64,000 nt of DNA from a virus: IMG/VR virus record IMGVR_UViG_3300027974_000032, positions 1 through 64,000 of that record. One strand, 5' to 3'. Shown piece by piece: positions 2,161-38,521 of the stretch. A program made the translations under genes and the position numbers. Under the pieces are notes generated by a model. That model did no database searches, was not told the DNA's origin, and saw nothing but the letters and a program-made list of their open reading frames with translations. Within the stretch, counting starts at the first letter, position 1. Each line of letters begins with the position of its first letter.

Positions 2161-2287
2161 CATTGCTGAAATTGATCGTGAAATAAGAGATCAGATAATC
2201 AAGGAACATATGTTTAAATACTACCATTGGACAGTTGGAATCATGTCATTTTTGATTGGAACATTTTTTGGAATGTTAATAAAATAA
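2150..2287 (+). CDS. small protein with C-terminal TM helix (45 aa)
   Basis: MKPDIAEIDREIRDQ...WTVGIMSFLIGTFFGMLIK. Confidence 0.55.
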   Translation: MKPDIAEIDREIRDQIIKEHMFKYYHWTVGIMSFLIGTFFGMLIK

Positions 2288-2292
2288 ACAAA

Positions 2293-2844
2293 ATGGAAAA
2301 ATGGTTACTTGATAATATTATTTTTGTTACATTTCCTAGATCAGGTTTAAACTATTTTGCTGAATACTTTGAGCAAGCCACAAACTTTTATCTACCAAGA
2401 AGTCATTTTTATAAAAGAGATGAAAATAGGGAGGTATTTTCAATTGTAAGAAGCCCAATCGATACCATTGTATCTGGAGTTTCTCAACATATTAATTCCA
2501 AACCTGATGATTCTATTGAAAGAGTTGCAAAAGATACAGCAAAAGAATACTTTATGTTTTATAATTATGTTATAAATCAAAAAGTACGGAACATTATAAG
2601 TTACAATGATTTTATAAAAGATCCAGCAAATACTATCAAAAATTTTTCTAATTGCTTAGATTTAGAAAATGTTAGTATAGATTATACAAATATTCTAAAG
2701 CCCCATCATGACTATGTTCCAAGTAGTAAAAATTTAGAGGTTTATAGCGATGTTTTAATGTATGTAAAAACCTTAGATTTGTCTATACATCAAATAGAGT
2801 ATCAGAAATCTCTTAGCAAAAACATTTTGTTTAATAAAAGGTAA
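2293..2844 (+). CDS. sulfotransferase-domain-like protein
   Basis: TFPRSGLNY (5'-PSB-like), VRSPIDTIVS (3'-PB-like), SYNDFIKDP. Confidence 0.65.
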   Translation: MEKWLLDNIIFVTFPRSGLNYFAEYFEQATNFYLPRSHFYKRDENREVFSIVRSPIDTIVSGVSQHINSKPDDSIERVAKDTAKEYFMFYNYVINQKVRNIISYNDFIKDPANTIKNFSNCLDLENVSIDYTNILKPHHDYVPSSKNLEVYSDVLMYVKTLDLSIHQIEYQKSLSKNILFNKR

Positions 2845-6341: not shown

Positions 6342-6902
6342 ATGAGTATAATAGTTGCAACATATCCAAGGTCTGGTTCAACATACCTTACATTGTTATT
6401 TTCTTTTGCTTTTAATCAGAAAATTGATAAGGTACACCTTGATCAAGATGGTCAGTTAGAAGATTTAAAAAACTATGATTTTTCAATTGGAACAGTTAGA
6501 GAGCCAGTCGACTCTATTACATCAATTGTTGCCATGGAAGCACTTCATTTTAGAAACGGTGATGAATTTGAATCATATACAAATGAAACAATAGAAAAAA
6601 GAATAAAAGAGTATGTAAATTTTTATACATTATCACTTAGCAATATTGATCTATTATTTGATTACGATAAAATTAATTCTAAAAGGTTTGAAATTCTTGA
6701 TTATGTATCCACAGTTACTAATAATAAAATAATCAACAAAGAGTATATTGATTTAGTTAAAGATAGACCAGAAATAGGTTACTTAAGATCTTCAAAAACT
6801 TATGATCGATATGATTTAATAAGGGAAAAGGTTTTATCCTATGACCTATCTGAATGTTTTATCGTTTACAATAAGAACAAAATGCAGACTGTGGATCTTT
6901 AA
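6342..6902 (+). CDS. sulfotransferase-domain-like protein; paralog of 2293..2844
   Basis: ATYPRSGSTYL, VREPVDSITS. Confidence 0.65.
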   Translation: MSIIVATYPRSGSTYLTLLFSFAFNQKIDKVHLDQDGQLEDLKNYDFSIGTVREPVDSITSIVAMEALHFRNGDEFESYTNETIEKRIKEYVNFYTLSLSNIDLLFDYDKINSKRFEILDYVSTVTNNKIINKEYIDLVKDRPEIGYLRSSKTYDRYDLIREKVLSYDLSECFIVYNKNKMQTVDL

Positions 6903-13062: not shown

Positions 13063-14423
13063 TGGCTGACCCTATTAGATAAATAATAATTTAAATCTTC
13101 TGGAGTTCCAACTCCCCACATTTTTTTAATATCGCTAGTAAAAATTCTTTTATTATCTAAAATTGCTTCATTAAAAACTGGGCAGACATAAAACTCATTA
13201 TTAGTTCTAATATTTTTATCAATCATTTGTTCTGAATACTTAACAAAATCAGAACCATGTTTCCAATAATATATACCAACTGTTGCTATATCACTAATAG
13301 GCTTTTTTTCTGCTACTTCAACAACTAATCCATTATCATCAACCCTAGCATATGACCATTTTGGATGTGTTGATTTAAATGTTGCTATTCCTCCATCTGC
13401 ATTTTTTGTCATTAGGTCATATATAAACTGTCGACTATTCCATTCTACTATTTGATCAGAGTTTGCCATAATAAGCGGACTTTCGCTATCTATATATTCT
13501 TTGGCTAAAAGGCATGTTACTGCAGCCCCCTCAGTAACTCCATCTACCTGAACAATATTGCATTCTGGAGTGATAAGATTTAATAAATAAGACAGATTAT
13601 ATTTTTCGTAGTGCTCTTTTTGTACTATATAGGTATACTTTGCTTTTACCCCAAGAGACTCCACCACAGCCTGAATCATGGGTTTGCCATCTACTTCGAC
13701 CAATGGCTTAGGGAATACGTATCCAGCATCCTTAAAACGGCTTCCAAGCCCAGCCATGGGTATTAGAACATTAAGGCCCTGATCTTTCCAAGTTGCTCCG
13801 CTATATTTTAAAAGACTAATAGCCTTATTAATCTTATCTTCTGTAAGGTCTGTTCTATTCTTAATTTCAATTAGATTTGCCTTGCTATCTCTTGCTGCTA
13901 ATTTCCCAACAAGACTATCTTCAAAAATAACTGTCTCATCTGCAATTACACCAAAGTGTGACATGGCTTGCCAGTACATTTCTGGGTGTGGCTTTGGATT
14001 TTTAACATCTTCATTACTTACAACGTGGTCTACTAAGTTTAAGACTCCTAAACTTTTGAGACAGTCAATAACTGTTTTACTAATGCTGTTACTTGCTACG
14101 GCTATATTAATATTATTATCTTTAATCATAGTAAGCAGTCTAACTAAATCTTTGTCTTCTGGAATATTGGAAAACATTGTGCTTGTTATTTCTTGTTTTA
14201 TTGACCACACACTATCAAACATTTCTTCTGGAAGACCTTTGTATTTATTTAAAAGGCTTAGTTTTGCTTTTGTTGGTAGACCCTCATATATATTTTCTTG
14301 CTCTTCTTTTGTTATAACATAAGATATGTCAAGTGATCTAAGTGCGTCATTGAGTGCATCAAAATGAATTGTTTTGCTATCAACAAGTACCCCATCTAAA
14401 TCAAAAGCAATCAACTTATTCAT
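13059..14423 (-). CDS. HAD phosphatase - sugar nucleotidyltransferase fusion
   Basis: FDLDGVLVDS, KPHPEMY, FEDS; then IPMAGLGSRF...PKPL...GTPEDL. Confidence 0.88.
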   Translation of the reverse strand: MNKLIAFDLDGVLVDSKTIHFDALNDALRSLDISYVITKEEQENIYEGLPTKAKLSLLNKYKGLPEEMFDSVWSIKQEITSTMFSNIPEDKDLVRLLTMIKDNNINIAVASNSISKTVIDCLKSLGVLNLVDHVVSNEDVKNPKPHPEMYWQAMSHFGVIADETVIFEDSLVGKLAARDSKANLIEIKNRTDLTEDKINKAISLLKYSGATWKDQGLNVLIPMAGLGSRFKDAGYVFPKPLVEVDGKPMIQAVVESLGVKAKYTYIVQKEHYEKYNLSYLLNLITPECNIVQVDGVTEGAAVTCLLAKEYIDSESPLIMANSDQIVEWNSRQFIYDLMTKNADGGIATFKSTHPKWSYARVDDNGLVVEVAEKKPISDIATVGIYYWKHGSDFVKYSEQMIDKNIRTNNEFYVCPVFNEAILDNKRIFTSDIKKMWGVGTPEDLNYYLSNRVSH

Positions 14424-15417
14424 CTTTGTTCCTTGAGTCTATAAAGTTAAATGCTGGAGTAGACACAATTCTTTTAATTAATGTATCTGCTTCTGTATTT
14501 ATATTTGGAAAACCAAAATAGTTGCAGTTTTTTCTAAAAGCAATTGCATGATAAAAATGATGTTGACCTTCTTCAAACCCAAACCGATTTTCTGTTTTAT
14601 CCATATAGTTTACATGAGAAACATTTGTTATTAGTGTTGTCATTAATTCTATAACTGTGCCACCTGGCTGCATAAACATAACATTTGTCAGTCCACCACC
14701 AGTAATTCCTACTATAGTATCAACTTCATAGAAATAGTTTAACTGATCTTCAAAAGAATCAAAATCTTCTGGGATCACAACCTCAAATCCATTATCAAGA
14801 AAAAAGTTTTCAAGTTTTTCTTCATCATCTATTCTATTATAGGTATTTCTTGTCAGTTTTTTAGAAAACTCTTCTCCATATTGCTTATTCTTATAATTAG
14901 TTAAACCCTTTCTACTCAAATATACTTTTCTAAAAGGCTTAACATCTTGATTTTTAATAAAAGGCATTACATATTTCATCAATATGTTTGATGCATTATG
15001 ATCTACAACCCTCTGGGTTCTTATGTAGAAATTATCAATATTAACGCTGCTACCCTTTGTTAGATCTACCTTTTCATAATTAACATTATGATAATCTAAT
15101 AGTTTAAAGCAAAACTCATTTACCTTGTGAGTCACTGGTGTTCTATTTGGAATAGACACATCTATAATAAACAATGTATCAGGATTAAGTTCAAATATAT
15201 GAAAGACCGTTCCTAAAAAATCATGCATACAATGATAAAAACTTATTGGAAGCCTCATGATCATTTTTGTTTGATCTGAATAAAAGGACATACTTTCTTC
15301 ATTAACTGGCTCTAACACACGAAAGTCTGGATTATATCCAACATTCCAAGAATACTTATCCTTGATGAGTTCATAGTCACTATCAGAAGTGGTTATTGTT
15401 TGAATTGTTACTGCCAT
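14416..15417 (-). CDS. glycosyltransferase family 61 (DUF563)-like
   Basis: RKVYLSR...RI.DEE.LE..F...GFEVV.PE..SFEDQ..F...IVG.TGGGLTN.MFMQPGGTVIEL. Confidence 0.75.
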   Translation of the reverse strand: MAVTIQTITTSDSDYELIKDKYSWNVGYNPDFRVLEPVNEESMSFYSDQTKMIMRLPISFYHCMHDFLGTVFHIFELNPDTLFIIDVSIPNRTPVTHKVNEFCFKLLDYHNVNYEKVDLTKGSSVNIDNFYIRTQRVVDHNASNILMKYVMPFIKNQDVKPFRKVYLSRKGLTNYKNKQYGEEFSKKLTRNTYNRIDDEEKLENFFLDNGFEVVIPEDFDSFEDQLNYFYEVDTIVGITGGGLTNVMFMQPGGTVIELMTTLITNVSHVNYMDKTENRFGFEEGQHHFYHAIAFRKNCNYFGFPNINTEADTLIKRIVSTPAFNFIDSRNKDE

Positions 15418-15701
15418 TATTGCTCCATAGTCATTCTAGTCCAAAAACTTCCCCAGTCTTTTTTATTCCTATGACTATTATACTCCCTTGATATCTCACC
15501 TGACTCTAGGTATACCCCGCCCCAAATACCCCATTCCTTCCCAGTAACTCCAACTGCAAAACAGTTTTTGCTTACTGGACATGAAGAACAAAGTTTATCT
15601 ACGGCTGGCCTCAGAATCTCATCGTCTTCATATTTATCAAAGAATAAGTCTGTGTCATAGTCTAAACAAGAAGATTGATCTTTCCATTCATGTTTAGCCA
15701 T
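15417..15701 (-). CDS. whiB: WhiB-family Fe-S transcription regulator
   Basis: Start MAKHEW at 15701; W....C...D.DLFF...CxxCPV...C...GIWGG. Confidence 0.9.
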   Translation of the reverse strand: MAKHEWKDQSSCLDYDTDLFFDKYEDDEILRPAVDKLCSSCPVSKNCFAVGVTGKEWGIWGGVYLESGEISREYNSHRNKKDWGSFWTRMTMEQ

Positions 15702-15912
15702 TAGTTTCCACGAACTTACTTGGTATATCCCAACCAGTTCTATTTGCCTCGTATCTAGTCTGAATATGCCATTTGCCATTAACTAGAGCACCATTTGCAG
15801 ATGACCTAGCCTTATCAGATGGGATGGAGTTTACTACTGTCCAACCATCCCAAGATAGTGTCTTATTGTTTTCAACAACTTTTTCCATATGTTCTAATGT
15901 TTTGATAATCAT
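15694..15912 (-). CDS. hypothetical protein
   Basis: 72 aa, AGGAG SD. Confidence 0.7.
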   Translation of the reverse strand: MIIKTLEHMEKVVENNKTLSWDGWTVVNSIPSDKARSSANGALVNGKWHIQTRYEANRTGWDIPSKFVETNG

Positions 15913-17013: not shown

Positions 17014-17257
17014 TTACAAACTCCAAAAATTGTTCACGAGTTTTGGCACCATTCATCCGCTTAACCTCTATACCATCATTAATCAAAACGTAGGTGGGAA
17101 CAGATTTGATGCCAAATTTTTCTATTAGTTCAAGTTCTGTATCTGCATCAACAAATATAAAATCAACCAACCCCTCACGCTTAAGTTCATCGGCAACTGG
17201 CTTTGTCCTTTGACATGGATTACACCAATCTGCTGTAAAATAAAGTACATGCTTCAT
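17006..17257 (-). CDS. thioredoxin
   Basis: FTADWCNPC...VDAD...SVPT. Confidence 0.9.
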   Translation of the reverse strand: MKHVLYFTADWCNPCQRTKPVADELKREGLVDFIFVDADTELELIEKFGIKSVPTYVLINDGIEVKRMNGAKTREQFLEFVNE

Positions 17258-17895
17258 TTAACTAATACTACACTAAACTTGGTGTTTTTGCAAGACTTCA
17301 AACCTGTGGCAATAAAGTTTTTTTCAGTTTTATCTACAGACAAACTCCATCTAACTTTAATTGAAACCCAATTTACTAAGTACTCACAAGCATAGGCTTT
17401 ATTTGTTGGCATCCATTCTGCTGGATCTTGGTCAGACTTAGATCTATTTGAACCACCAGTTACAGCAATTAAGTGACGAGGATCTGTTTGGTCATTAGCA
17501 TACATCTCCTTCTTTGCTGCATCCCAAGCAGATGCACCAGAGTCCCAAGCCTCTGCAAGTGGAACCATATGATCTACATCTAGTTTCCCTGCTTCTGTAA
17601 CCACAATATTATCATAGATGCTTAGCCATTGCCCACCCTTAATTACACAGCCTTTTTCAACTACAGGCTTCTTAACTGCCTCAGCAATAATTACTGCCTT
17701 GCGTGAGTCACAACCATTTCCAGCACCTGTCCAGTGCTTAAATAGTGTACGCTTATATCCTGTACGAACCTCATCTGCTACTTTAAGAGTATTCAAAGCA
17801 GTTGTAGCATCCTTATATGATACTGTACTTGCTGCTTGAGCAGCACTTGCAACCATAGAAATACTAATGATTGCGGTTAATAATAGTTTACGCAT
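17254..17895 (-). CDS. secreted DUF1524/HNH-family nuclease
   Basis: Signal peptide MRKLLLTAIISISMVASAAQA; DVDHMVPLAEAW.SGA, NRSKSDQDPAEW. Confidence 0.85.
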   Translation of the reverse strand: MRKLLLTAIISISMVASAAQAASTVSYKDATTALNTLKVADEVRTGYKRTLFKHWTGAGNGCDSRKAVIIAEAVKKPVVEKGCVIKGGQWLSIYDNIVVTEAGKLDVDHMVPLAEAWDSGASAWDAAKKEMYANDQTDPRHLIAVTGGSNRSKSDQDPAEWMPTNKAYACEYLVNWVSIKVRWSLSVDKTEKNFIATGLKSCKNTKFSVVLVK

Positions 17896-18097
17896 TCTTT
17901 CTCCCCCAATTAATTTTATCCCAAATTCTTTCATGCCAATAATAAATTCCAACCTTAACAATTGTTTCCCACATTGCAATTAGAGCAGAAAGACTTCCTT
18001 TTCCAGTAATAGCATAGGCAACCAAAAAAGATGATAATGTACCAAAAATACGATAACTTAATGACTTCGTAAATGATCTTTGTTTAGTTACTTTCAT
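17888..18097 (-). CDS. DUF2061 small membrane protein
   Basis: RSFTKSLSYR...YYWHERIW.KI.WG. Confidence 0.8.
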   Translation of the reverse strand: MKVTKQRSFTKSLSYRIFGTLSSFLVAYAITGKGSLSALIAMWETIVKVGIYYWHERIWDKINWGRKNA

Positions 18098-18297
18098 TCT
18101 CTACCCCATGACGTTTTGTTCCATGCTCTTTCATGAACATAATAAAGTATAAAGTTTATGCCATTTGTTAAAAGAGTTCCAACCCAGGCTACTTTGATCT
18201 CACCACTAACAATATAGATTGATATAAAAGTTGTTATAAGTGCTATAACTCTCCATGTTAATGATTTTATTAATGATCTTTTTTTATTTACGTTCAT
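18094..18297 (-). CDS. DUF2061 small membrane protein
   Basis: RSLIKSLTWR...YYVHERAWNK.SWG; start MNVNKK. Confidence 0.8.
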   Translation of the reverse strand: MNVNKKRSLIKSLTWRVIALITTFISIYIVSGEIKVAWVGTLLTNGINFILYYVHERAWNKTSWGRE

Positions 18298-18427
18298 TTT
18301 TGTCGCCAAACATTATTCGCTCTTCTGCTTCATTCATTTTCTTGCCAGACTCTTCAATATAACTAAATGCTGAAACACTTATTTTTTTTATAAAATTAAA
18401 TATAATAATAAATACTTTATTCATCAT
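18284..18427 (-). CDS. small hypothetical protein (47 aa)
   Basis: MMNKVFIIIFNF...; ATGA coupling fills operon gap. Confidence 0.45.
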   Translation of the reverse strand: MMNKVFIIIFNFIKKISVSAFSYIEESGKKMNEAEERIMFGDKNERK

Positions 18428-19158
18428 TTTTCCTTTCCAGAAATCACAAGTGTTGGTTGCTGAACCCTGTTTTTTAAAACAAAGTCCATTATATCACTTA
18501 ACTTTCCTTCCATCATAAACTCATCTTGTGTTGTTAAGTTGCTCAAAAGAGTCATCTCTTTTTCTGCACCCAAATGATACAGTAACTCTTTAAAAAATAT
18601 ATCCTGTATCTCATGATGATAAAATATTACTGATGGATATTGACTATTTTTTATATTTTCGTATATATATTTTTTGTTCTTATCATAAAAGATCATTCCA
18701 TAAAAAGAAAATGATTGACCATAGTAAAATTTAGAATAAGATAGTGAGTCAATTACTGAGGATGGGCCTGGTAAAATTTTGTATTTAATACCTTTTGATA
18801 TGGCTAACTGCCTAATTGTATCAAATGGATCTTGAACAATTGCACTTCCCTCATCAGATAAGCACAAAACAGTTTCATTTAAAGAAATATGCCTCATTAC
18901 CTCATCAGACATTCTTTGTCCGCTATTGTTGACACCCTTTAAATCATGAGTTATACCATTTGTCATAAAATCTCTTGGAGAAAAACTAACTATCTCTCCA
19001 GTAAAGTTTAACTCATAGCGATCAATTATTTCTTTTATGGTTTCTTCATTTTCAACAGCAAGAACTTCTGCTTTTTCAATATGATTGACTAAATTATATG
19101 TTAAGTCGTCTAGGTTACCTATTGGCATTGTTCCAAATATTAGTTTTGCATTACTCAC
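18424..19158 (-). CDS. RsmI-like SAM-dependent methyltransferase (second copy)
   Basis: TMPIGNLDDLT, LSDEG...QDP, LPGPSS, FSFYG, LTTQDE. Confidence 0.75.
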   Translation of the reverse strand: MSNAKLIFGTMPIGNLDDLTYNLVNHIEKAEVLAVENEETIKEIIDRYELNFTGEIVSFSPRDFMTNGITHDLKGVNNSGQRMSDEVMRHISLNETVLCLSDEGSAIVQDPFDTIRQLAISKGIKYKILPGPSSVIDSLSYSKFYYGQSFSFYGMIFYDKNKKYIYENIKNSQYPSVIFYHHEIQDIFFKELLYHLGAEKEMTLLSNLTTQDEFMMEGKLSDIMDFVLKNRVQQPTLVISGKEK

Positions 19159-19916
19159 AGTCCTAGTTCCTTGCGTTTTTCAGTTGCAGATATAGCATGT
19201 ATCTCTGCACCCAAATCAACCTGCTCAATCTTATAACCGACATCACGACCATATACAATGTTAGTGATATTAGGAAGTCTTAATACTAGTGCACCATCCA
19301 TAAATTCATCCTTGGCAATGTACTCTTTAACCTGATCAAACTTAAGTGGATCTTTCTCACTTGTATTATAAGTGTTACGGACTCCAAGAAGGACTTGATC
19401 TGTTCTCTTCCCCGCCTCTTTGTAAAGTGCGTGATGGCCTTCGTGCCATGGTTGATATCTACCAAGCATAAGAGTTGTTGGTGCTGACCAATCATGGAGA
19501 TTAAACTTGTCTATAATATGTGATGACTTCTCTACTGCACCAAGATTATGACTAATAAAAGATACATCAGGACTCTCTGGACGCTCAAACATCTTATTTG
19601 TGTCTTCAAAACGGCCCTCTGCAATGGTATCCATAAATACTAAAATATCTGGCTTTCCAAATGCTGCACGAGTCAATTCTGTTGGACATACAAAATCTAC
19701 AATTACTGGAGCAACACCTTGCTTAGCAATTAGTCTTGCCATCTCACCCATACGACGTGCTTGCTCAATTCTATCTTCTGATGTAAAGCCTAGATCTGAG
19801 TTAACAGTTGCACGAACTTCATCTGCGTTAAGATGAATAGCATTAATGCGTTCCTTAAGTGTTTTTGCAAGTTCAGTTTTCCCTGATCCTGGAAGCCCAA
19901 TAATTTGTATAATCAT
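19155..19916 (-). CDS. cysC: adenylylsulfate kinase-like domain fused to HxGH nucleotidyltransferase
   Basis: GLPGSGKT, NADEVR...DLGFTSEDR.EQARR, FVCP, FE.P; then GRYQPWHEGH...GRDVGY...ISAT. Confidence 0.8.
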   Translation of the reverse strand: MIIQIIGLPGSGKTELAKTLKERINAIHLNADEVRATVNSDLGFTSEDRIEQARRMGEMARLIAKQGVAPVIVDFVCPTELTRAAFGKPDILVFMDTIAEGRFEDTNKMFERPESPDVSFISHNLGAVEKSSHIIDKFNLHDWSAPTTLMLGRYQPWHEGHHALYKEAGKRTDQVLLGVRNTYNTSEKDPLKFDQVKEYIAKDEFMDGALVLRLPNITNIVYGRDVGYKIEQVDLGAEIHAISATEKRKELGL

Positions 19917-19918
19917 TT

Positions 19919-20500
19919 TTATTCTCCTATGTATTGTTCTGGTACTATATCAATAATCATATGAATTCTATCCTCATGACTATTATTTGTTACGTAGTGG
20001 ACTTTGCTATTATTAATTTCCCAGCACTCTCCAACTTTCATATTAATACTTTCTTCATCAACGTGAAACATAACATCTTTATTTGTTTTTAATGGGATAT
20101 GGTGTCTTCTTACTATTCCCAAATATTTTGATTCGTCTGCGTGTGGAATAATATCACTATCTGGAAGTAGTTTAACTATCATGGCAAGCGATGCTTTTCC
20201 ATTATGAACAACCTCAAGGTCTTTCATTATTTTATCTGCAATAGATAAAACATGCACACTATTTGCTAAAGGGAATACTGCCAACTTTTCATGTGGTTCC
20301 CATCCTGGCTTAAAAGATCTTAAATAGTATGTATTTGTATTCATATGAACACTATTTGGCTGATTTTGTCTAGATGTATCAAGTCTCCACTCAGTTGTAA
20401 ACTTGCCTACTATTTCTGACAACTCTGATACATCATAGGACCTTATAAGATTAAAGTTAAAATCCTCATTTAATTTGTTGTATGCATTCATACTAATCAT
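19919..20500 (-). CDS. Asp/Asn beta-hydroxylase-like 2OG oxygenase
   Basis: IIPHAD...RHHIPL.TN...GECWEINN..VH.V.N....RIHMIID. Confidence 0.8.
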   Translation of the reverse strand: MISMNAYNKLNEDFNFNLIRSYDVSELSEIVGKFTTEWRLDTSRQNQPNSVHMNTNTYYLRSFKPGWEPHEKLAVFPLANSVHVLSIADKIMKDLEVVHNGKASLAMIVKLLPDSDIIPHADESKYLGIVRRHHIPLKTNKDVMFHVDEESINMKVGECWEINNSKVHYVTNNSHEDRIHMIIDIVPEQYIGE

Positions 20501-21125
20501 TATACCCTAAAGCCCTAAACTCCCAAGACCAATCATGGGCAATCATATCTAAATAAACAGTTGAAAAAACATCTTTATAATTTATGCCTTTGGGCCTATA
20601 GGCTTTTTCATTAGCAGTTACATTAATGGTTGGCAAACCATGCAATGGAAGAATTCTATTAATCTCTTGCTCAAGACCTTTTTCATGCCTCAATATATCT
20701 GTTACTGCTATCTCTCCATTGACCGTATAGATATCCTTTGTACTTTTCATCCAAGGTCCATTGCTAAACTGATTATTAAAATAGTAATCAACTAGCCTAT
20801 CTTGCTCTAGTTTGCTAAGTGAATTCCAATGAACATTTATTATTTCAGATCTAAAGAAAAAATCAGAAAGAACCATTTCGTATGGATGTCTAACTATCGT
20901 ATAAGACTTTACACCAGATAAATCAAGTTCTTGATTTGCCTCGAGCCATGTTGTATGATTAACAAACTTTCCAAAGTTTCTTGGTCTATGCTCTTTATTG
21001 GGTGGATTGATCAAGGTAACAACTGCAGAGTCTGGTAAAATTTTTGATAACTCTACCTCAAGAGAAGTACTACCAACTTTCATATTTTTGATTAACAGAA
21101 AGTTATGGTCTTTAGAAAAGATCAT
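20493..21125 (-). CDS. sulfotransferase family 2-like protein
   Basis: FLLIKNMKVGSTS, TIVRHPYE..LS.F, F..LGY end. Confidence 0.7.
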   Translation of the reverse strand: MIFSKDHNFLLIKNMKVGSTSLEVELSKILPDSAVVTLINPPNKEHRPRNFGKFVNHTTWLEANQELDLSGVKSYTIVRHPYEMVLSDFFFRSEIINVHWNSLSKLEQDRLVDYYFNNQFSNGPWMKSTKDIYTVNGEIAVTDILRHEKGLEQEINRILPLHGLPTINVTANEKAYRPKGINYKDVFSTVYLDMIAHDWSWEFRALGYND

Positions 21126-21126
21126 T

Positions 21127-21369
21127 TTACCAAGTTTCAGTTTCTGGCTTTTTGATTAACTTATCACGTTCATCGGTAATTGTTATTGCAAATCCCATCA
21201 TTTTTTCATACGAAAGAGGATTGTCCATAATTTTGTTATAGTGATGACCACAAAATAAAAGTTCTCCATTGAGTCCAACTACCTGAACTAATGCCTCTGC
21301 CTGACAAGAGTCACAGCGATCCAATGGGGTAAGGATATACTTACTCTCTTCTTTCATATCGGTAATCAT
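21127..21369 (-). CDS. zinc-finger protein of actinobacterial type
   Basis: LTPLDRCDSC.AEA...ELLFCGHH. Confidence 0.7.
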   Translation of the reverse strand: MITDMKEESKYILTPLDRCDSCQAEALVQVVGLNGELLFCGHHYNKIMDNPLSYEKMMGFAITITDERDKLIKKPETETW

Positions 21370-21887
21370 ATTAGTTTCTCCTTTTTATTATACTCTTCTT
21401 TTATTGTTTTATTTGATAAAATTCTTTCATCTATAATATTTTTAGGTTCTGCATACAAAAAGTTGTTAGATAGTGACCTGTAATGCGTTTTTCTCCAATG
21501 AAAATTGCAAAAAAACTTATCTTCTCCTACTTGGTCATTAATAATTTTTACAAATGCTTCTTCTTCACACCAGCATAGTTCGCTAAAAGTTCTAACTGTT
21601 GCTTTTTTGTCAAATGTGTCCTTTATGCTTTCAAGTTTTTCAACAACATATTTTTCAATTTCTGGCCATAGGTTGGGGGTAGAGTCATTCGTCATGTTTC
21701 TTTCATAGATGTAATGAAAGTCACATAAAAACCTTTTTCCTCTAGAGCCTTCTAGGTAAACAAGTGCAGGAGCAACACACGAAGTACTCATCATATTTAC
21801 AAACTCTGGCTTTATTGCTTTATATGATAAGGAGACCATTGGATCAAAGGCCTCGCAGGTTTGTCCATCTGGAATTTCTTTTATCAT
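21366..21887 (-). CDS. protein with two C...FCxFH zinc-finger repeats
   Basis: FLCDFH and FFCNFH. Confidence 0.6.
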   Translation of the reverse strand: MIKEIPDGQTCEAFDPMVSLSYKAIKPEFVNMMSTSCVAPALVYLEGSRGKRFLCDFHYIYERNMTNDSTPNLWPEIEKYVVEKLESIKDTFDKKATVRTFSELCWCEEEAFVKIINDQVGEDKFFCNFHWRKTHYRSLSNNFLYAEPKNIIDERILSNKTIKEEYNKKEKLI

Positions 21888-22069
21888 TTTTTCCTATTGT
21901 CAGTGGAGTAGAAACCACTCCCATTGAATACTGCTCCTATAATAGAGTATACACGAGTTAGATCTGAATTGCAAGTTTCACACTTATACCCTGGATCATT
22001 GTCAGAGATAGATCGCTCTTTAATAAAATTATCATTGCAAGTACTACAATTATATTCATAAATAGCCAT
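21884..22069 (-). CDS. FmdB-family zinc-ribbon protein
   Basis: YEYNCSTC...CETC...FNGSGFYSTD. Confidence 0.85.
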   Translation of the reverse strand: MAIYEYNCSTCNDNFIKERSISDNDPGYKCETCNSDLTRVYSIIGAVFNGSGFYSTDNRKK

Positions 22070-22074
22070 AAATA

Positions 22075-22182
22075 TTACTTCTTCTTTTTTGCTTTTACTG
22101 TCCAGTATGGTAACTTAAGGTTATCTCCAGACCATTCATAACCAAGCAACTTGACAACAAATTTAATAATTTTAATTCTCAT
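22075..22182 (-). CDS. small basic peptide (35 aa)
   Basis: MRIKIIKFVVKLLGYEWSGDNLKLPYWTVKAKKKK; TAATG coupling. Confidence 0.55.
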   Translation of the reverse strand: MRIKIIKFVVKLLGYEWSGDNLKLPYWTVKAKKKK

Positions 22183-22382
22183 TATTTAACTCCTTTCCCA
22201 AACTTTGCCCATAATCTTTCATGTACAAAATATCCTAGTGACTCAATTGCAATGTATAGAATTGCTCCCAAACCTGCATACTCCCATTCACCAGTAAATA
22301 TATATATTATTCCTGCAAGGACAACAAGATGAAATGTTTCCCAACTCAATGTCTTTATGGATGTTCTTCTCTTTGACTCCAT
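22182..22382 (-). CDS. DUF2061 small membrane protein (third copy)
   Basis: MESKRRTSIKTLSW...TG...YFVHERLWAK. Confidence 0.75.
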   Translation of the reverse strand: MESKRRTSIKTLSWETFHLVVLAGIIYIFTGEWEYAGLGAILYIAIESLGYFVHERLWAKFGKGVK

Positions 22383-23958: not shown

Positions 23959-25383
23959 CTATACTATAATTTTTGTATTATAGTTTGACTCCCATTCAGC
24001 AATATCTAACTCATCATTTAGTAGTGGTTGTCCCTTAATATTTAGGCTAGTATTTAAAAGAACTGGCACTCCAGTTTCTAGATAGAATTTATTAAGCAAT
24101 CTCCACAGTCCAGGGTGATCTTTTTTATTCACAGTCTGAACTCTTGATGTTCCGTCAGCATGCACGACAGATGGTATTTTTTCTGGTTGTAAGCACTTTA
24201 CCGTATACTGCATATAGGGACTTGAAAAATCCATATCAAACCATTTACTTGCATGCTCTTCCATAACCACAGGAGCAAACGGTCTAAACTGCTCCCTCTG
24301 TTTAATTTTATTTACTTTGTTTTTTATGTCTGGGTCTCTAGGATCTGCCAATATACTTCTATTTCCTAGTGCTCTTGGTCCAAACTCTGCTCTTCCTACT
24401 GCTACTACTGCTATCTTATCTTTTTTCAATGCTTCAAAAATTTTATCTACTGGATAATCTCCACCAAGGTCATGACCAAGATATGGCCCCTTCCACTCTA
24501 GATGTTTTCCGTATAGTGCTGCTGCTGCCCCTAAAGAACTTCCAGCATCACCTGGGTTGGGCATAATCCAAATCATATCAAAAATGTTCCATAGTAAAGT
24601 ATTTGCTGAAGAGTTTAATGCACATCCACCCATAAATACTAAATTCTTTTTACCAGTAATAGAATAAGCCATATGCATAAAATCATTTAGTCTTTGCTGA
24701 TAAACAACTTGAACGGCTGCTGCAATGTCAAATCTATCTTGTTGATTTATATGCATGCCCCAGTCGGTAATTCCTTTATGAAAATTATACTTTTGCTGAT
24801 TATGTCTAGGAAAGTATTCATCAACTTCTTTATAGTATCTCTTCCAGTCCCCATAAGCAGCCATACCCATCATAATATATTCTTCTTGATTTGGCATCAA
24901 ACCAATTAATTGTGTGAATGCTGAATAAAATAACCCAAAACTAACAGGATAGTTTTGTTTATATTTTAACCTAATCTTATCACCTTCTCCAATCCAAATT
25001 GTAGAAGTATTATACTCACCCATAGCATCAAGCACTACAATGACTGCATCATTAAAATCGCTTGTATAGTATCCCGCTGCTGCATGGGAATAGTGATGGC
25101 TAAAAGATTTTCTAGGTATAGAGTCAAGATAAAACTTGGGCTTCCAGTCCCCACAGCCACCCTTTAAAAATAGCCTAGAGGCTTTTAGAAGGGGTTTTTC
25201 ATAGTAGGCAATATAGTCTGGTGCACCATAGGATAATGCATCTTTTACTAAACTATTATTGATGTACCAATCATTTTTTTCTTTACTATATCTTTCTGCA
25301 TGCCCAGCAAAAAGGATCTCTCCATCTTTAATTAAAGACAGGGAGGCATCATGAGATGTCTCATTGACTCCTAAAATTATCAT
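23959..25383 (-). CDS. carbamoyltransferase (NodU/CmcH family)
   Basis: HDAS, ERYSKEK, HHYSHA, GGCALN, GDAG, EFGPRALGNRS, REQFRPFAP, NTSLN. Confidence 0.93.
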   Translation of the reverse strand: MIILGVNETSHDASLSLIKDGEILFAGHAERYSKEKNDWYINNSLVKDALSYGAPDYIAYYEKPLLKASRLFLKGGCGDWKPKFYLDSIPRKSFSHHYSHAAAGYYTSDFNDAVIVVLDAMGEYNTSTIWIGEGDKIRLKYKQNYPVSFGLFYSAFTQLIGLMPNQEEYIMMGMAAYGDWKRYYKEVDEYFPRHNQQKYNFHKGITDWGMHINQQDRFDIAAAVQVVYQQRLNDFMHMAYSITGKKNLVFMGGCALNSSANTLLWNIFDMIWIMPNPGDAGSSLGAAAALYGKHLEWKGPYLGHDLGGDYPVDKIFEALKKDKIAVVAVGRAEFGPRALGNRSILADPRDPDIKNKVNKIKQREQFRPFAPVVMEEHASKWFDMDFSSPYMQYTVKCLQPEKIPSVVHADGTSRVQTVNKKDHPGLWRLLNKFYLETGVPVLLNTSLNIKGQPLLNDELDIAEWESNYNTKIIV

Positions 25384-25432
25384 ATGTATATGGTACCATA
25401 AATACATAGGCATCAGAATTAGAGGCAACAAT

Positions 25433-26263
25433 ATGAACGTAAATGTTTTAAGGTTTTATAATAAAACTCCATTTAATCAATATAATTCTATAAAAAAGGA
25501 ATCTCTTTCCACTCAATTTACCAACCCAGCGAACCTCATCCCTATTTTATATAAAATAAACTATGATAATGAAATCCTTGAGATGGGTTCTGGTGCTGGA
25601 TGGTTAATCAATGGGTTGGCATATCACAACAATGCCTTTGGTCTTGGGGTTGATTTTAATAAAAAGGCAGTAAAAATCTCAAATAAAGTATCTAATAAAT
25701 TAAATTTAAACACAAGGTTTATTGAAGAAGATATCTTTAGTTTTGCAAAAAAATCTGAAACAAGGTTTAAAACAATAATATCTTTTGGTGCATTGCACCA
25801 TACTGAAGATTGCCATGAAGCAATTAAATTAATCGTAGAAAATCTTTTAGAGAAAGATGGTGTATTGATTTTAGGTCTTTATCATAGTTATGAAAGAAAG
25901 CCATTCTTAGATTATTTTAATCATTTAAAGCAAACTGGACTATCTAATAAAAAACTATTTAATTACTACAAAAAACTAAAACATAAAAACTTTATTACCA
26001 AAGATAAATCTTTAATTAAGTCAATCTTTAATGACCAGGTACTACACCCACATGAAACACAGCATTCTTTTGTTGAGATAAAAGAACTTTTAGAAAACCT
26101 TGACTGCACAGTAATTAAAACATCAATTAACAACTATAAAGATATAGTTGGAGATGAAGACTGGAACTCTATAGAGAACATAATTTTAAAAAATGCACAG
26201 GTAGATATTGATAACTTTATCTTTAATCCTGGTCTATTTACAATTAAGGCAGTTAAAAACTAA
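25433..26263 (+). CDS. class I SAM-dependent methyltransferase
   Basis: ILEMGSGAG, GVDF, GALHHT; DQVLHPHE. Confidence 0.82.
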   Translation: MNVNVLRFYNKTPFNQYNSIKKESLSTQFTNPANLIPILYKINYDNEILEMGSGAGWLINGLAYHNNAFGLGVDFNKKAVKISNKVSNKLNLNTRFIEEDIFSFAKKSETRFKTIISFGALHHTEDCHEAIKLIVENLLEKDGVLILGLYHSYERKPFLDYFNHLKQTGLSNKKLFNYYKKLKHKNFITKDKSLIKSIFNDQVLHPHETQHSFVEIKELLENLDCTVIKTSINNYKDIVGDEDWNSIENIILKNAQVDIDNFIFNPGLFTIKAVKN

Positions 26264-36742: not shown

Positions 36743-38521
36743 TTATAGTAAGTTAAATCTATCCAAATAATCTTTTACATCATTTGGCATAGGTTTATAT
36801 TCTATCACATTGGTGAAGGGGTTGTCAACTTTGGGGCTGTCCCTAAATGTATGAATCTCCACTTCAGTGTTATTATCCTTTGGGGTATGTGATATTGCCC
36901 CAAAAATAGCACCACACACAGCGTCAGCCAAGTCTTTTGATAACTTTCGTGGGTGGTCAACTCTATTATTTTTCATAATCTTTAACTCTGTTAGTTCTTC
37001 GAACAAAAGTTCTATTGAGGGCATCGCAAGTCTTTCCTCATATACAAGCATTGCCATATCTTCATAATGTTTTTTAGCAACAGAAACTGTTTCAGTTCTC
37101 ATGCCAACCTGCTTTAATTCATTTTGAATATCAAAGGACTGCCAACGGTCAAAGGAAACCATTCCAATATTGAAACCCATTCTTCTTAAGTTTTGAATCC
37201 ATTGTTTTACATCCGAAAGATTGACTGGCCCCTCGACTTTAGGTTCCCAATAGACAACTGCATCTACAACCACTATCGGTGCTACCTGCTCATAATTATT
37301 AATAACTTGAACATTTACCCATTTGTCTACATGAGCAATTGCAACCGCACACTTGTCATGTTTTTGTGCAAGGTCAGCATGAACATAATAAACTTTATCT
37401 GGATCTGGTTTAAATGCTTCATCAAATCTTTTAAAATTATCTATTGGATTTCTTAATGTCATACACTTTCTAACTTTTTCTACTTGTTTAAAAAATGCAT
37501 CTGTAGAGTGTGTTGGTACACATGCAAATCTTTGCATTGCATCACCCAGGTCTGTAAAGAAAGAAATCTTAAAGTCTTCAATTTTTCTTGTTGGATTAAC
37601 AACCCATGTTGGTCTCTTTAAAGCAAAAACTCCAGGATATTTATAAGAAATAATTGTGTCTTCTTGCCAAGATATTTCTAATGTATTTCCTGGTGCATCT
37701 GCAGGAAGATCTTCATTCATAATAAAGGTGTGAGTCTTTTCAACAATTTCTTTTTCTGCAATTACATCATCATACTTTTGTGAAATAAAGTCTCCTGGAT
37801 AACGTGGGAAAGATAGTAGGGCTACTTTACCAAGATCAGGAAAACGAGAATCAACGGATGCACGGAATGCTTTATATATATTATCTGCTGTTTTTCCTTG
37901 TTCATTTCCTGTTCCAACTTCTTGTGCAAAACCTGAAATTTCATCAAGTACTGCTAACAAAAGGTTTAAACCCTCATGTGACTCACGTTCTGAGTGACCA
38001 GAGTAAACAGTAATAGAGTGATCAAACTCAATACTTTCTGCTTTTGGATTATACTTTCCAGCAAACCATGGAGACCTTTCAATCTTAGTTTTAAATCCTT
38101 TAAAGAAAACATTTTTAGCCTGTTGAGCATTGATAGCAACGTTAATAATATCAATAGCATCTCCAGATGGTTTACCAAAATATTTTGCTGGATCATTTAA
38201 ACATAATAGTTTATAAACTATATAGGCACATGCTACTGTAGATGTAAAATCTTTACCAGACCCCTTGCCAAGTTGGAGAATTACTTCATTCTTTGTATAT
38301 TTTTTATAATACCTTGTACCCTCTTCTTCACCTAGCAAATCAATAAGATCTTCGAGTTTATATATTTGGCTCATTGCCTCAACAATATCGTATTGAACCT
38401 GTGAAAGTGGTGGCTGTCCTAAATAATCTTCACCCTCAACAAAGGTCTTTGCGTTCACTGGTATTTCAGCAAAGTTGTTATTTTTTAATACTTCAAGAAA
38501 CTCATTGAACATCGTGGACAA
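36743..38521 (-). CDS. terL: terminase large subunit
   Basis: GKGSGKDF Walker A, VLDEISGF Walker B, HADLAQKHD, SFDRWQS, DHP...SKDLADA. Confidence 0.88.
   Translation of the reverse strand: MSTMFNEFLEVLKNNNFAEIPVNAKTFVEGEDYLGQPPLSQVQYDIVEAMSQIYKLEDLIDLLGEEEGTRYYKKYTKNEVILQLGKGSGKDFTSTVACAYIVYKLLCLNDPAKYFGKPSGDAIDIINVAINAQQAKNVFFKGFKTKIERSPWFAGKYNPKAESIEFDHSITVYSGHSERESHEGLNLLLAVLDEISGFAQEVGTGNEQGKTADNIYKAFRASVDSRFPDLGKVALLSFPRYPGDFISQKYDDVIAEKEIVEKTHTFIMNEDLPADAPGNTLEISWQEDTIISYKYPGVFALKRPTWVVNPTRKIEDFKISFFTDLGDAMQRFACVPTHSTDAFFKQVEKVRKCMTLRNPIDNFKRFDEAFKPDPDKVYYVHADLAQKHDKCAVAIAHVDKWVNVQVINNYEQVAPIVVVDAVVYWEPKVEGPVNLSDVKQWIQNLRRMGFNIGMVSFDRWQSFDIQNELKQVGMRTETVSVAKKHYEDMAMLVYEERLAMPSIELLFEELTELKIMKNNRVDHPRKLSKDLADAVCGAIFGAISHTPKDNNTEVEIHTFRDSPKVDNPFTNVIEYKPMPNDVKDYLDRFNLL
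36799..36828 (-). promoter_or_regulatory. promoter inside terL 3' end, for surface protein gene
   Basis: TTGACA-18-TAGAAT with TG extension. Confidence 0.65.

Follow-up and report, generated by a model that had tools for sequence, protein, structure and literature searches.

A phage-encoded fusion of an APS-kinase-like domain and a minimal nucleotidyltransferase as a candidate compact PAPS synthase

ATP sulfurylase, which makes adenosine 5'-phosphosulfate (APS), and the synthesis of 3'-phosphoadenosine 5'-phosphosulfate (PAPS) are textbook steps of sulfate activation, and two types of ATP sulfurylase are known, Sat and CysDN. In the PAPS synthases and Sat-CysC proteins (human PAPSS1, 1x6v; Aquifex, 2gks; Penicillium, 1i2d), an APS kinase and an HxGH adenylyltransferase are carried on one polypeptide of about 550-630 residues. 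Here we analyse a 253-residue protein that likewise joins an APS-kinase-like domain to an HxGH nucleotidyltransferase, in the kinase-then-transferase order of the animal PAPSS enzymes. It is encoded in a 64,000-nucleotide stretch of viral DNA (the window; positions 1 to 64,000 of IMG/VR record IMGVR_UViG_3300027974_000032), as part of a module whose genes all lie on the minus strand at 17888-22382. The window belongs to a 75-kb record with an estimated completeness of 69%, in which no gene of the Sat, CysD or PAPS-reductase families was detected. From sequence comparison and genomic context, we put the probability that the fusion is a compact two-step sulfate-activating enzyme, that is, a PAPS synthase, at roughly 0.6; that the module serves APS/PAPS metabolism is very likely. 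Our literature search found no description of the fused domain, of a NadM-like sulfurylase or of a function for DUF2061, the family of small membrane proteins that accompanies the fusion. Reviews and surveys count viral 'cysC' among the auxiliary genes that lack validation (PMC12713726). The fusion and its two domains are as follows.

19155-19916, minus strand: fusion of an APS-kinase-like domain and a minimal HxGH nucleotidyltransferase (mini-NT), 253 residues (open reading frame, Pfam, PHROG and AlphaFold2 (AF2) model)
19512-19916, minus strand: kinase domain, residues ~1-135, with an APS-kinase fold that lacks the lid segment of CysC
19158-19490, minus strand: mini-NT domain, residues ~143-253, with the motifs GRYQPWHEGH, YGRDVGY and ISATEKR

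The two-domain architecture had been read from the sequence in a preliminary description of this DNA, and it holds. Residues 2-85 match Pfam APS_kinase (1.7e-15; 57.8 bits against a cutoff of 21.1), although the match spans only positions 4-91 of the 152 in the model. Residues 150-188 match CTP_transf_like just under the cutoff (6.6e-4), and the full-length protein matches phrog_10255, annotated 'kinase' (1.5e-63). The family numbers 6882 homologues, of which those with E<1e-30 form 91 clusters at 50% identity, and is also present in cultured phages of Xylella, Xanthomonas, Stenotrophomonas and Clavibacter. Residue conservation was assessed in an alignment (A1) of 41 diverse members, and an AF2 model of the fusion with 41 diverse homologues has a predicted local distance difference test score (pLDDT) of 91.8.

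The kinase half of this model superposes on Mycobacterium tuberculosis CysC (4rfv) with Z = 17.7 and a root mean square deviation of 1.8 Å over 126 residues (VIA). Whole-protein fold searches of the fusion are dominated by this half, and the top 40+ Foldseek matches are all APS kinases (E 8e-9). The next fold outside the APS kinases is gluconate kinase (Z 15.0); dephospho-CoA kinases score 11.7. For the kinase half a profile search against the PDB reaches 2.9e-17, and the block LNADEVR...GFTSEDRIEQ aligns with LDGDNxR...GFSxEDRxEN of solved APS kinases. G12, K13 and R35 are invariant across the 41 members, and D32, F44, R49 and Q52 reach a conservation of 90% or more; we take R35 and the latter four to serve in positioning the 3'-OH, in adenine stacking and in binding the phosphosulfate of APS. 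The alignments end near residue 96, and the lid segment of CysC (RDxKGLY...AraGeI) has no counterpart. In its modelled structure and its aligned APS-site residues the kinase half is thus an APS kinase, as had been proposed, though not a canonical member of CysC.

The mini-NT half, modelled on its own (pLDDT 93.9), is a minimal HxGH nucleotidyltransferase of about 110 residues. Both histidines of the GRYQPWHEGH motif, H158 and H161, are invariant among the 41 members, as are G152, R153, Q155, G223, R224, G227 and R248, and three motifs recur throughout the family: GR(F/Y)QP(F/W)HxGH, YGR(D/G)VGY and ISATxxR. In the window's protein HEGH, YGRDVGY and ISATEKR stand in the order HxxH/GRD/ISxTxxR, the aspartate of GRD being a glycine in some members. 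We assume these to correspond to the motif forms of Sat (HxxH, a GRD-type loop, ISxTxxR), and related motifs occur in other HxGH enzymes. A HMMER alignment to the NMN (nicotinamide mononucleotide) adenylyltransferase NadM (1f9a) covers residues 4-75 and 110-133 of the latter and leaves ~76-109 without a counterpart. Missing are some 25 NadM residues that follow strand 3 and precede the ISxT helix, a segment that presumably carries the nicotinamide-binding helix. By sequence, the mini-NT resembles a NadM from which the NMN-specific part has been removed.

The mini-NT is tied to APS-kinase domains by repeated fusion and fission. It pairs almost only with such domains, either as fusions in both orders or as overlapping neighbouring genes. 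Protein P0161 is a mini-NT followed by a complete canonical CysC (TIGR00455, 233.6 bits against a cutoff of 138.7), and P0245 is a canonical CysC followed by a mini-NT (164.6 bits, same cutoff); both have the lid segment that is absent from the window's fusion. In P0167 the order is swapped, with the mini-NT preceding a mini kinase. The fused form occurs in 108 of 160 further viral loci, and in 44 a separate kinase gene lies no more than 3 kb from the mini-NT; in 40 of these 44 split loci a mini-kinase gene of 122-154 codons lies immediately upstream of the mini-NT on the same strand. Longer forms of the fusion, when searched for, were limited to CysNC and two odd chimeras; none joined it to a sulfotransferase or transporter. 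In two bacterial proteins, P0129 and P0266, the kinase(-NT) unit has a DUF4118 membrane domain fused to its N-terminal side, which hints at an enzyme located at the membrane. Another protein, P0250 (172 residues), in which an N-terminal mini-NT piece runs into a kinase domain without a P-loop, may have arisen by deletion or as a chimera of the assembly.

Sulfotransferases, which use PAPS, are the second recurrent partner. We took a census of the neighbours in 240 viral loci without favouring any family beforehand. Two clusters recurred, which Pfam identifies as Sulfotransfer_2 and Sulfotransfer_3/1, and the loci were then searched with hidden Markov models (HMMs) of both. By the cluster HMMs, a sulfotransferase stands beside the module in 93 of the 240 loci. 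The closest one lies within 1.2 kb in 24 loci with a Sulfotransfer_2-type and 43 with a Sulfotransfer_3-type gene, mostly on the same strand. The corresponding genes of the window, together with the hydroxylase and membrane-protein genes of the module, are listed here; those on the minus strand were found where the preliminary description had placed them.

20493-21125, minus strand: divergent Sulfotransfer_2-like protein, 210 residues, first gene of the cassette (HMM, Atlas and synteny)
19919-20500, minus strand: oxygenase of the Asp/Asn beta-hydroxylase family (LpxO-like), directly upstream of the fusion (Pfam Asp_Arg_Hydrox, 4.3e-16)
18094-18309, minus strand: DUF2061 copy b, a small membrane protein of two helices (Pfam, 7.1e-14)
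17888-18097, minus strand: DUF2061 copy a, in tandem with copy b (Pfam, 1.6e-17)
22182-22382, minus strand: DUF2061 copy c, a third paralogue, adjoining a CHAP-like gene (Pfam, 1.2e-12)
2227-2844, plus strand: candidate minimal sulfotransferase-like protein, weak evidence (motifs PRSGLN and VRSPIDTIVS)
6342-6902, plus strand: candidate minimal sulfotransferase-like protein, weak evidence (motifs PRSGST and VREPVDSITS)

The protein encoded at 20493-21125, earlier called a family-2 sulfotransferase, has no match in Pfam even at E<=1 and none in NCBIfam or PHROGs. Its nearest language-model (Atlas) clusters are Sulfotransfer_2 (PF03567; score 0.97), and an HMM of neighbours that Pfam verifies as Sulfotransfer_2 finds it at 6.2e-5. 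An hhalign comparison is end-to-end and motif-colinear at E 8e-4, with a probability of only 24%; of the Sulfotransfer_2 motifs the lysine and the first R...S are aligned, with substitutions at the invariant P, N and second R. In four related loci (L008, L024, L038 and L050) its syntenic slot holds a recognisable Sulfotransfer_2-type gene. We predict that it is a divergent version of this gene of its relatives.

Gene order in the cassette is conserved. The product of 19919-20500, called a hydroxylase in the preliminary description, passes the Pfam cutoff for PF05118 (59.6 against 22.6 bits) and matches NCBIfam LpxO below cutoff (1.2e-6). In all seven related loci that have both genes, the hydroxylase lies immediately downstream of the Sulfotransfer_2-type gene, and in four of these seven the pair directly precedes the fusion. 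The resulting order of abutting genes, sulfotransferase, hydroxylase, fusion, is that of L008, L024, L038 and L050, and in the last three DUF2061 follows directly after the fusion. Three further loci (L068, L077 and L082) have the order sulfotransferase, fusion, DUF2061. The two more distant genes of the window, also proposed as sulfotransferases, are paralogues of each other (E 5e-8) and share PRSGxT/N and VRxPxDxxxS motifs, but the statistics are weak: the product of 2227-2844 matches the ST3 HMM at 8.5e-4, and that of 6342-6902 matches Pfam Sulfotransfer_1 at 0.048 over 24 residues, with only 14-17% of the members of its nearest Atlas clusters carrying a Sulfotransfer_1/3 domain.

Cells carry the module too, on the chromosomes of many Alphaproteobacteria. 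The system that had been proposed as phage-encoded sulfation is therefore not specific to phages. We examined 80 bacterial loci, from Bradyrhizobium, Xanthobacteraceae, Reyranella, Inquilinus, Acetobacteraceae and Pelagibacteraceae. A sulfotransferase is present in 22 of the 80, in 13 cases within 200 nucleotides of the fusion, and no other neighbour family recurs. Pfam verifies these neighbours as TPR-Sulfotransfer_3, Sulfotransfer_1/3, Sulfotransfer_2 and Sulfotransfer_4 proteins. The fusion on the complete chromosome of Bradyrhizobium sp. Pha-3 has two Sulfotransfer_3 genes as its direct upstream neighbours. Bacterial loci that combine sulfotransferase and module adjoin genes for sugar-nucleotide enzymes and an ABC transporter.

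A third partner, APS reductase, comes from SAR11. Most SAR11 bacteria lack ATP sulfurylase despite having the AprAB route (PMC10356861). We searched 121 Pelagibacteraceae genomes, many of them partial, counting the module as present whether fused, split or reduced to the mini-NT alone. It occurs in 57 genomes, compared with 46 for AprA, 7 each for CysD and canonical CysNC, and 5 for Sat, and neither Sat nor CysD was found in 52 of the 57. With no account taken of phylogeny or genome completeness, which tempers all of these co-occurrence statistics, module and AprA are strongly associated (41 genomes with both, 16 with the module alone, 5 with AprA alone and 59 with neither; odds ratio (OR) 30, p 8e-14), 41 of the 46 AprA-positive genomes carrying the module. 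The module is also associated with Sulfotransfer_3, whether any match is counted (OR 6.0, p 7e-6) or strong matches only (OR 3.1, p 0.006). Thirteen genomes have a strong sulfotransferase match without the module, and three of these have CysD/CysNC instead.

The association with AprA extends to gene neighbourhood. In 19 of the 33 SAR11 pairs located on the same contig, the mini-NT gene lies 1.4-4.0 kb from aprA. In genome G238 four genes share a strand: one for a stand-alone mini-NT of 130 residues (L358:2268-2660) lies 52 nucleotides upstream of one for a 263-residue membrane protein, followed by aprB and aprA; the identity of AprB was checked in L156 (1jnr_B, 4e-35). Besides G238, about ten further SAR11 genomes have such a mini-NT of 115-130 residues, without a kinase, directly upstream of aprMBA. 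These stand-alone proteins are candidates for the ATP sulfurylase that most SAR11 are said to lack. In about half of the SAR11 cases the mini-NT is paired with a mini APS kinase, and in G201 (C8:7199-8075) it adjoins a full-length CysC-like kinase of 181 residues (117 bits, below cutoff). A similar CysC-like kinase in G231 (C2:33265-35237) is flanked by Sulfotransfer_3-like genes.

The preliminary description had made DUF2061 a membrane partner of the fusion, and gene order among the phages agrees with this. The three DUF2061 proteins of the window all pass the Pfam PF09834 cutoff of 23.1 (64.1, 52.4 and 48.5 bits). Across 80 related phage loci, a DUF2061 gene lies directly downstream of the fusion in 75, at a distance of -3 to +108 nucleotides from stop to start, with overlapping stop and start codons in 15 cases. 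The a/b tandem recurs in L015, L026, L028-L030, L047 and L048, and homologues of copy c are found in 32 of the 80 loci. The link is rarer in the more distant viral loci (14 of 160), and no DUF2061 gene lies within 10 kb of the fusion in the 80 bacterial loci. Nor do the two co-occur across genomes: in 151 Alphaproteobacteria, DUF2061 is present in 26 and the fusion in 3, with both in a single genome, where they are 2 Mb apart.

DUF2061 is nevertheless fused to sulfate-activating enzymes of the established type. Two alphaproteobacterial genes, each located directly after cysD, encode a CysN-DUF2061 protein (522 residues, L353:1034-2602 in G041; NF003478, 616 against a cutoff of 590) and a CysN-CysC-DUF2061 protein (850 residues, L352:1075-3627 in G067; TIGR02034, 358 against 336; TIGR00455, 208 against 138.7). 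But the domain also ends other, unrelated proteins: alphaproteobacterial proteins of ~390 residues (L354:652-1863, L356:880-2061, L357:756-1919 and L357:1916-3094, the last two encoded in tandem) have a C-terminal DUF2061 preceded by a domain of ~310 residues that has no match in Pfam, NCBIfam or the PDB. An 823-residue DUF2061 frame in G283 was considered as CysNC and rejected, a word-index search for longer DUF2061 forms gave nothing useful, and the neighbours of other bacterial DUF2061 genes form no informative pattern. Structure prediction of a complex between the fusion and DUF2061 scored 0.00, which is evidence neither for nor against pairing. In published transcriptome tables, DUF2061 genes figure among iron-responsive, Fur- or SsoR-associated genes of Caulobacter and Shewanella. 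The most economical reading makes DUF2061 a membrane hairpin of two helices, acting as a tether or partner for soluble enzymes that include sulfate-activating ones; a role as a sulfate channel is possible.

One metabolite, APS, links all partners of the mini-NT. It is the substrate of APS kinases, a product or substrate of APS reductase and the product of CysN and CysNC, which share DUF2061 with the module; sulfotransferases use PAPS, which is formed from it. Because of this common denominator, the simplest proposal is that the mini-NT catalyses ATP + sulfate <-> APS + PPi (pyrophosphate), and if it makes APS then the fusion would be a compact PAPS synthase. The C-terminal mini-NT, derived from NadM by loss of the central segment, would act as an ATP sulfurylase analogue, and the N-terminal lid-less kinase would phosphorylate the 3'-OH of the resulting APS to give PAPS. 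In the phage cassette, which runs from the sulfotransferase-like gene through the hydroxylase and kinase-NT genes to DUF2061, the hydroxylase probably creates an acceptor hydroxyl that the adjacent sulfotransferase would sulfate, and DUF2061 would accompany the sulfate-activating enzyme, most simply as its membrane tether or partner. The same kinase and mini-NT module would also work in cells, beside the sulfotransferases of Bradyrhizobium and relatives. In SAR11, a mini-NT acting alone beside aprMBA would run the reaction as APS + PPi -> ATP + sulfate. Each element of the PAPS-synthase proposal has gained independent comparative-genomic support; the catalysis, with sulfate as the substrate of the mini-NT and APS as that of the kinase, is what we infer.

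Several observations weigh against this proposal. The sole significant relatives of the mini-NT profile are the NMN adenylyltransferases NadM and NadR (1f9a, 1.3e-11), in agreement with the initial NadM-like label. The same profile finds no ATP sulfurylase in the PDB even at E<=10, the Sat family PF01747 does not match the fusion, and Sat entries appear in PDB profile searches with the fusion only through their own kinase-like domains. The mini-NT is about half the size of the Sat catalytic domain and, the fusion consisting of two domains only, is without Sat's PUA-like partner domain. Comparison of folds with Sat and NadM, suggested at the outset as a way to decide, does not discriminate: phosphopantetheine adenylyltransferase (PPAT), NadM and Thermus ATP sulfurylase are tied at Z 9.5, 9.2 and 8.3 (VIA), 1v47_B aligning 110 of 114 residues at 20% identity and trailing the other two by no more than about 1 Z, so that fold leaves the substrate of the mini-NT undecided. 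Foldseek with the mini-NT-only model gave no match at E<=1e-3. In the kinase half the lid is missing, and the score against the NCBIfam equivalog TIGR00455 (59.4 bits) is below the cutoff of 138.7. As for context, Bradyrhizobium and Inquilinus with the module already have CysD/CysNC; no Sulfotransfer_2/3 gene was found in Xylella phage Sano or in two complete jumbo phages with the module; and in phage Sano a NADAR-domain protein (gp34, L001:5553-5996) is encoded immediately upstream of the fusion. The absence of Sat from SAR11 cannot by itself force the mini-NT to be a sulfurylase, because AprBA could supply APS there. The reduced ATP sulfurylase of the preliminary description thus gains from its coupling to APS kinases, sulfotransferases and SAR11 APS reductase, and does not belong to the Sat family by sequence.

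These points leave room for a reading, unlikely in our judgement, in which the kinase half alone acts in sulfur metabolism, converting APS from host Sat, CysDN or AprBA to PAPS, and the mini-NT is not a sulfurylase but, for instance, a nucleotide-binding domain with a regulatory role or an adenylyltransferase of another small phosphate or acid. APS could be supplied otherwise, since many hosts of the module have CysD/CysNC and 41 of the 57 module-bearing SAR11 genomes have AprA. The lack of a sequence match to Sat suits this reading, and there is a precedent in fungal ATP sulfurylase, whose APS-kinase-like domain is purely regulatory. Yet the catalytic HxGH and ISxTxxR motifs of the mini-NT are invariant family-wide, which argues that it is an active enzyme. 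A kinase-less mini-NT upstream of aprMBA, as in the roughly ten SAR11 genomes, is sensible only if the mini-NT handles APS, and the 52 module-bearing SAR11 genomes in which no Sat or CysD was found also speak for a sulfurylase.

That the fusion instead follows the logic of a CoA synthase, adenylylating another compound and then phosphorylating the 3' position to give a different 3'-phospho-nucleotide cofactor or a non-adenine sulfonucleotide, is very improbable. The mini-NT matches PPAT best in structure, dephospho-CoA kinases match the kinase fold, and the two-step logic is the same as for PAPS; but APS kinases score 6 Z above dephospho-CoA kinases and match at the sequence level as well, and the sulfotransferases, AprBA, CysC fusions and CysN-DUF2061 specifically point to sulfate chemistry. 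The weakest alternative is a NadR-like salvage of NAD, in which the kinase would phosphorylate nicotinamide riboside and the mini-NT would adenylylate NMN to NAD, restoring NAD during infection: NadR likewise joins an NMN adenylyltransferase (NMNAT) to a P-loop kinase, NadM and NadR are the mini-NT's only significant relatives and the NADAR-domain gene of phage Sano would fit, but we consider it most improbable, given that the kinase is of the APS-kinase type by fold and substrate-site residues (the AAA_28 family of the NadR ribosylnicotinamide kinase type reaches only 9.6e-4), that mini-NTs are fused to canonical CysC, that the neighbours are sulfotransferases and APS reductase with no NAD genes, that the NadM segment ~76-109 of 1f9a is deleted, and that the mini-NT falls far below the NMNAT equivalog cutoff (TIGR01527, 20.8 against 181.2 bits).

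The PAPS-synthase proposal can be extended to a broader picture, to which we give an even chance. The NadM-derived mini-NT would constitute a third, minimal class of ATP sulfurylase. Joined to the lid-less kinase it would form the smallest known PAPS synthase, spread by aquatic phages and used for sulfation in Alphaproteobacteria; alone, it would be the 'missing' sulfurylase of SAR11; and DUF2061 would dock sulfate activation at the membrane, possibly at the site of sulfate entry. To our knowledge, freshwater Actinobacteria lack sulfate activation, and such an enzyme would explain how phages whose hosts probably have no sulfate activation can use sulfotransferases. It would also mean that viral 'cysC' auxiliary genes are to be re-annotated as full PAPS synthases. 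For SAR11 the mini-NT is a candidate to fill the published gap, AprAB being present and ATP sulfurylase lacking, and would complete AMP-dependent sulfite oxidation with a substrate-level gain of ATP in the ocean's most abundant heterotroph. DUF2061 gains a first functional context.

The source of the window is a freshwater actinophage. Its terminase (36743-38521) has ~54% identity to terminases of Streptomyces and Gordonia phages, a WhiB-like open reading frame was recognised by eye at 15417-15779 (minus strand), and several studies have metagenomes of lakes, rivers and other fresh waters that contain near-identical DNA. The terminase, the WhiB-like frame and a DUF7455 gene at 21127-21369 (minus strand) point to an actinobacterial host. 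A megablast search of the region against cultured phages gave no match, and no RNA runs are listed as containing the stretch. Upstream of the cassette on the minus strand lie small actinophage genes and the third DUF2061. One gene interrupts the cassette itself.

18424-19158, minus strand: RsmI-like TP_methylase gene, outside the conserved cassette (Pfam TP_methylase, 8e-11)

This gene scores 51 bits against a TIGR00096 cutoff of 167.9, is found in 5 of the 80 related loci and never adjoins the fusion there; it is an insertion between the fusion and the DUF2061 genes that is specific to the window's genome. At the other end, 17254-17979 (minus strand) encodes a protein with a GmrSD_C (HNH-type nuclease) domain and an N-terminal hydrophobic stretch; its true start is probably further downstream, because the longest open reading frame overlaps DUF2061 copy a by ~90 nucleotides. 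Genes for a GT61 glycosyltransferase (14416-15417), a NodU/CmcH-type carbamoyltransferase (23959-25431) and an S-adenosylmethionine (SAM) methyltransferase (25364-26263) flank the cassette, which suggests a larger region for surface or small-molecule modification.

Set beside the described systems, the fusion is closest in design to the PAPS synthases. Human PAPSS1 (1x6v) aligns with the fusion model through both domains (Z 16.4, 243 residues), in a different domain orientation. Unlike in those enzymes, the transferase comprises only ~110 residues, is NadM-like and lacks both the PUA-like domain and PF01747, and the kinase is without a lid. The kinase half shares with CysC (PF01583/TIGR00455) the fold, the P-loop and the aligned substrate-site residues, whereas the lid region is found in CysC only. 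With NadM (Methanocaldococcus jannaschii, 1f9a; Francisella, 2qjt) the mini-NT has in common GRFQPFHxGH, the NP loop and the (I/Y)S(A/G)T..R helix, but its genomic partners are sulfur enzymes rather than NAD enzymes. The cellular forms have counterparts of their own. In the sat-aprMBA clusters of sulfur oxidisers, sat occupies the place taken in SAR11 by the mini-NT, upstream of the membrane protein, aprB and aprA; Sat has ~390 residues and the SAR11 mini-NT, NadM-like, has 115-130. The NodPQ/NodH system of rhizobia likewise places dedicated sulfate activation beside sulfotransferases and sugar-nucleotide genes, as the module does in Bradyrhizobium and relatives, but NodPQ is a CysD plus CysNC GTPase system, whereas the bacterial module is a kinase-NT fusion of 250-270 residues.

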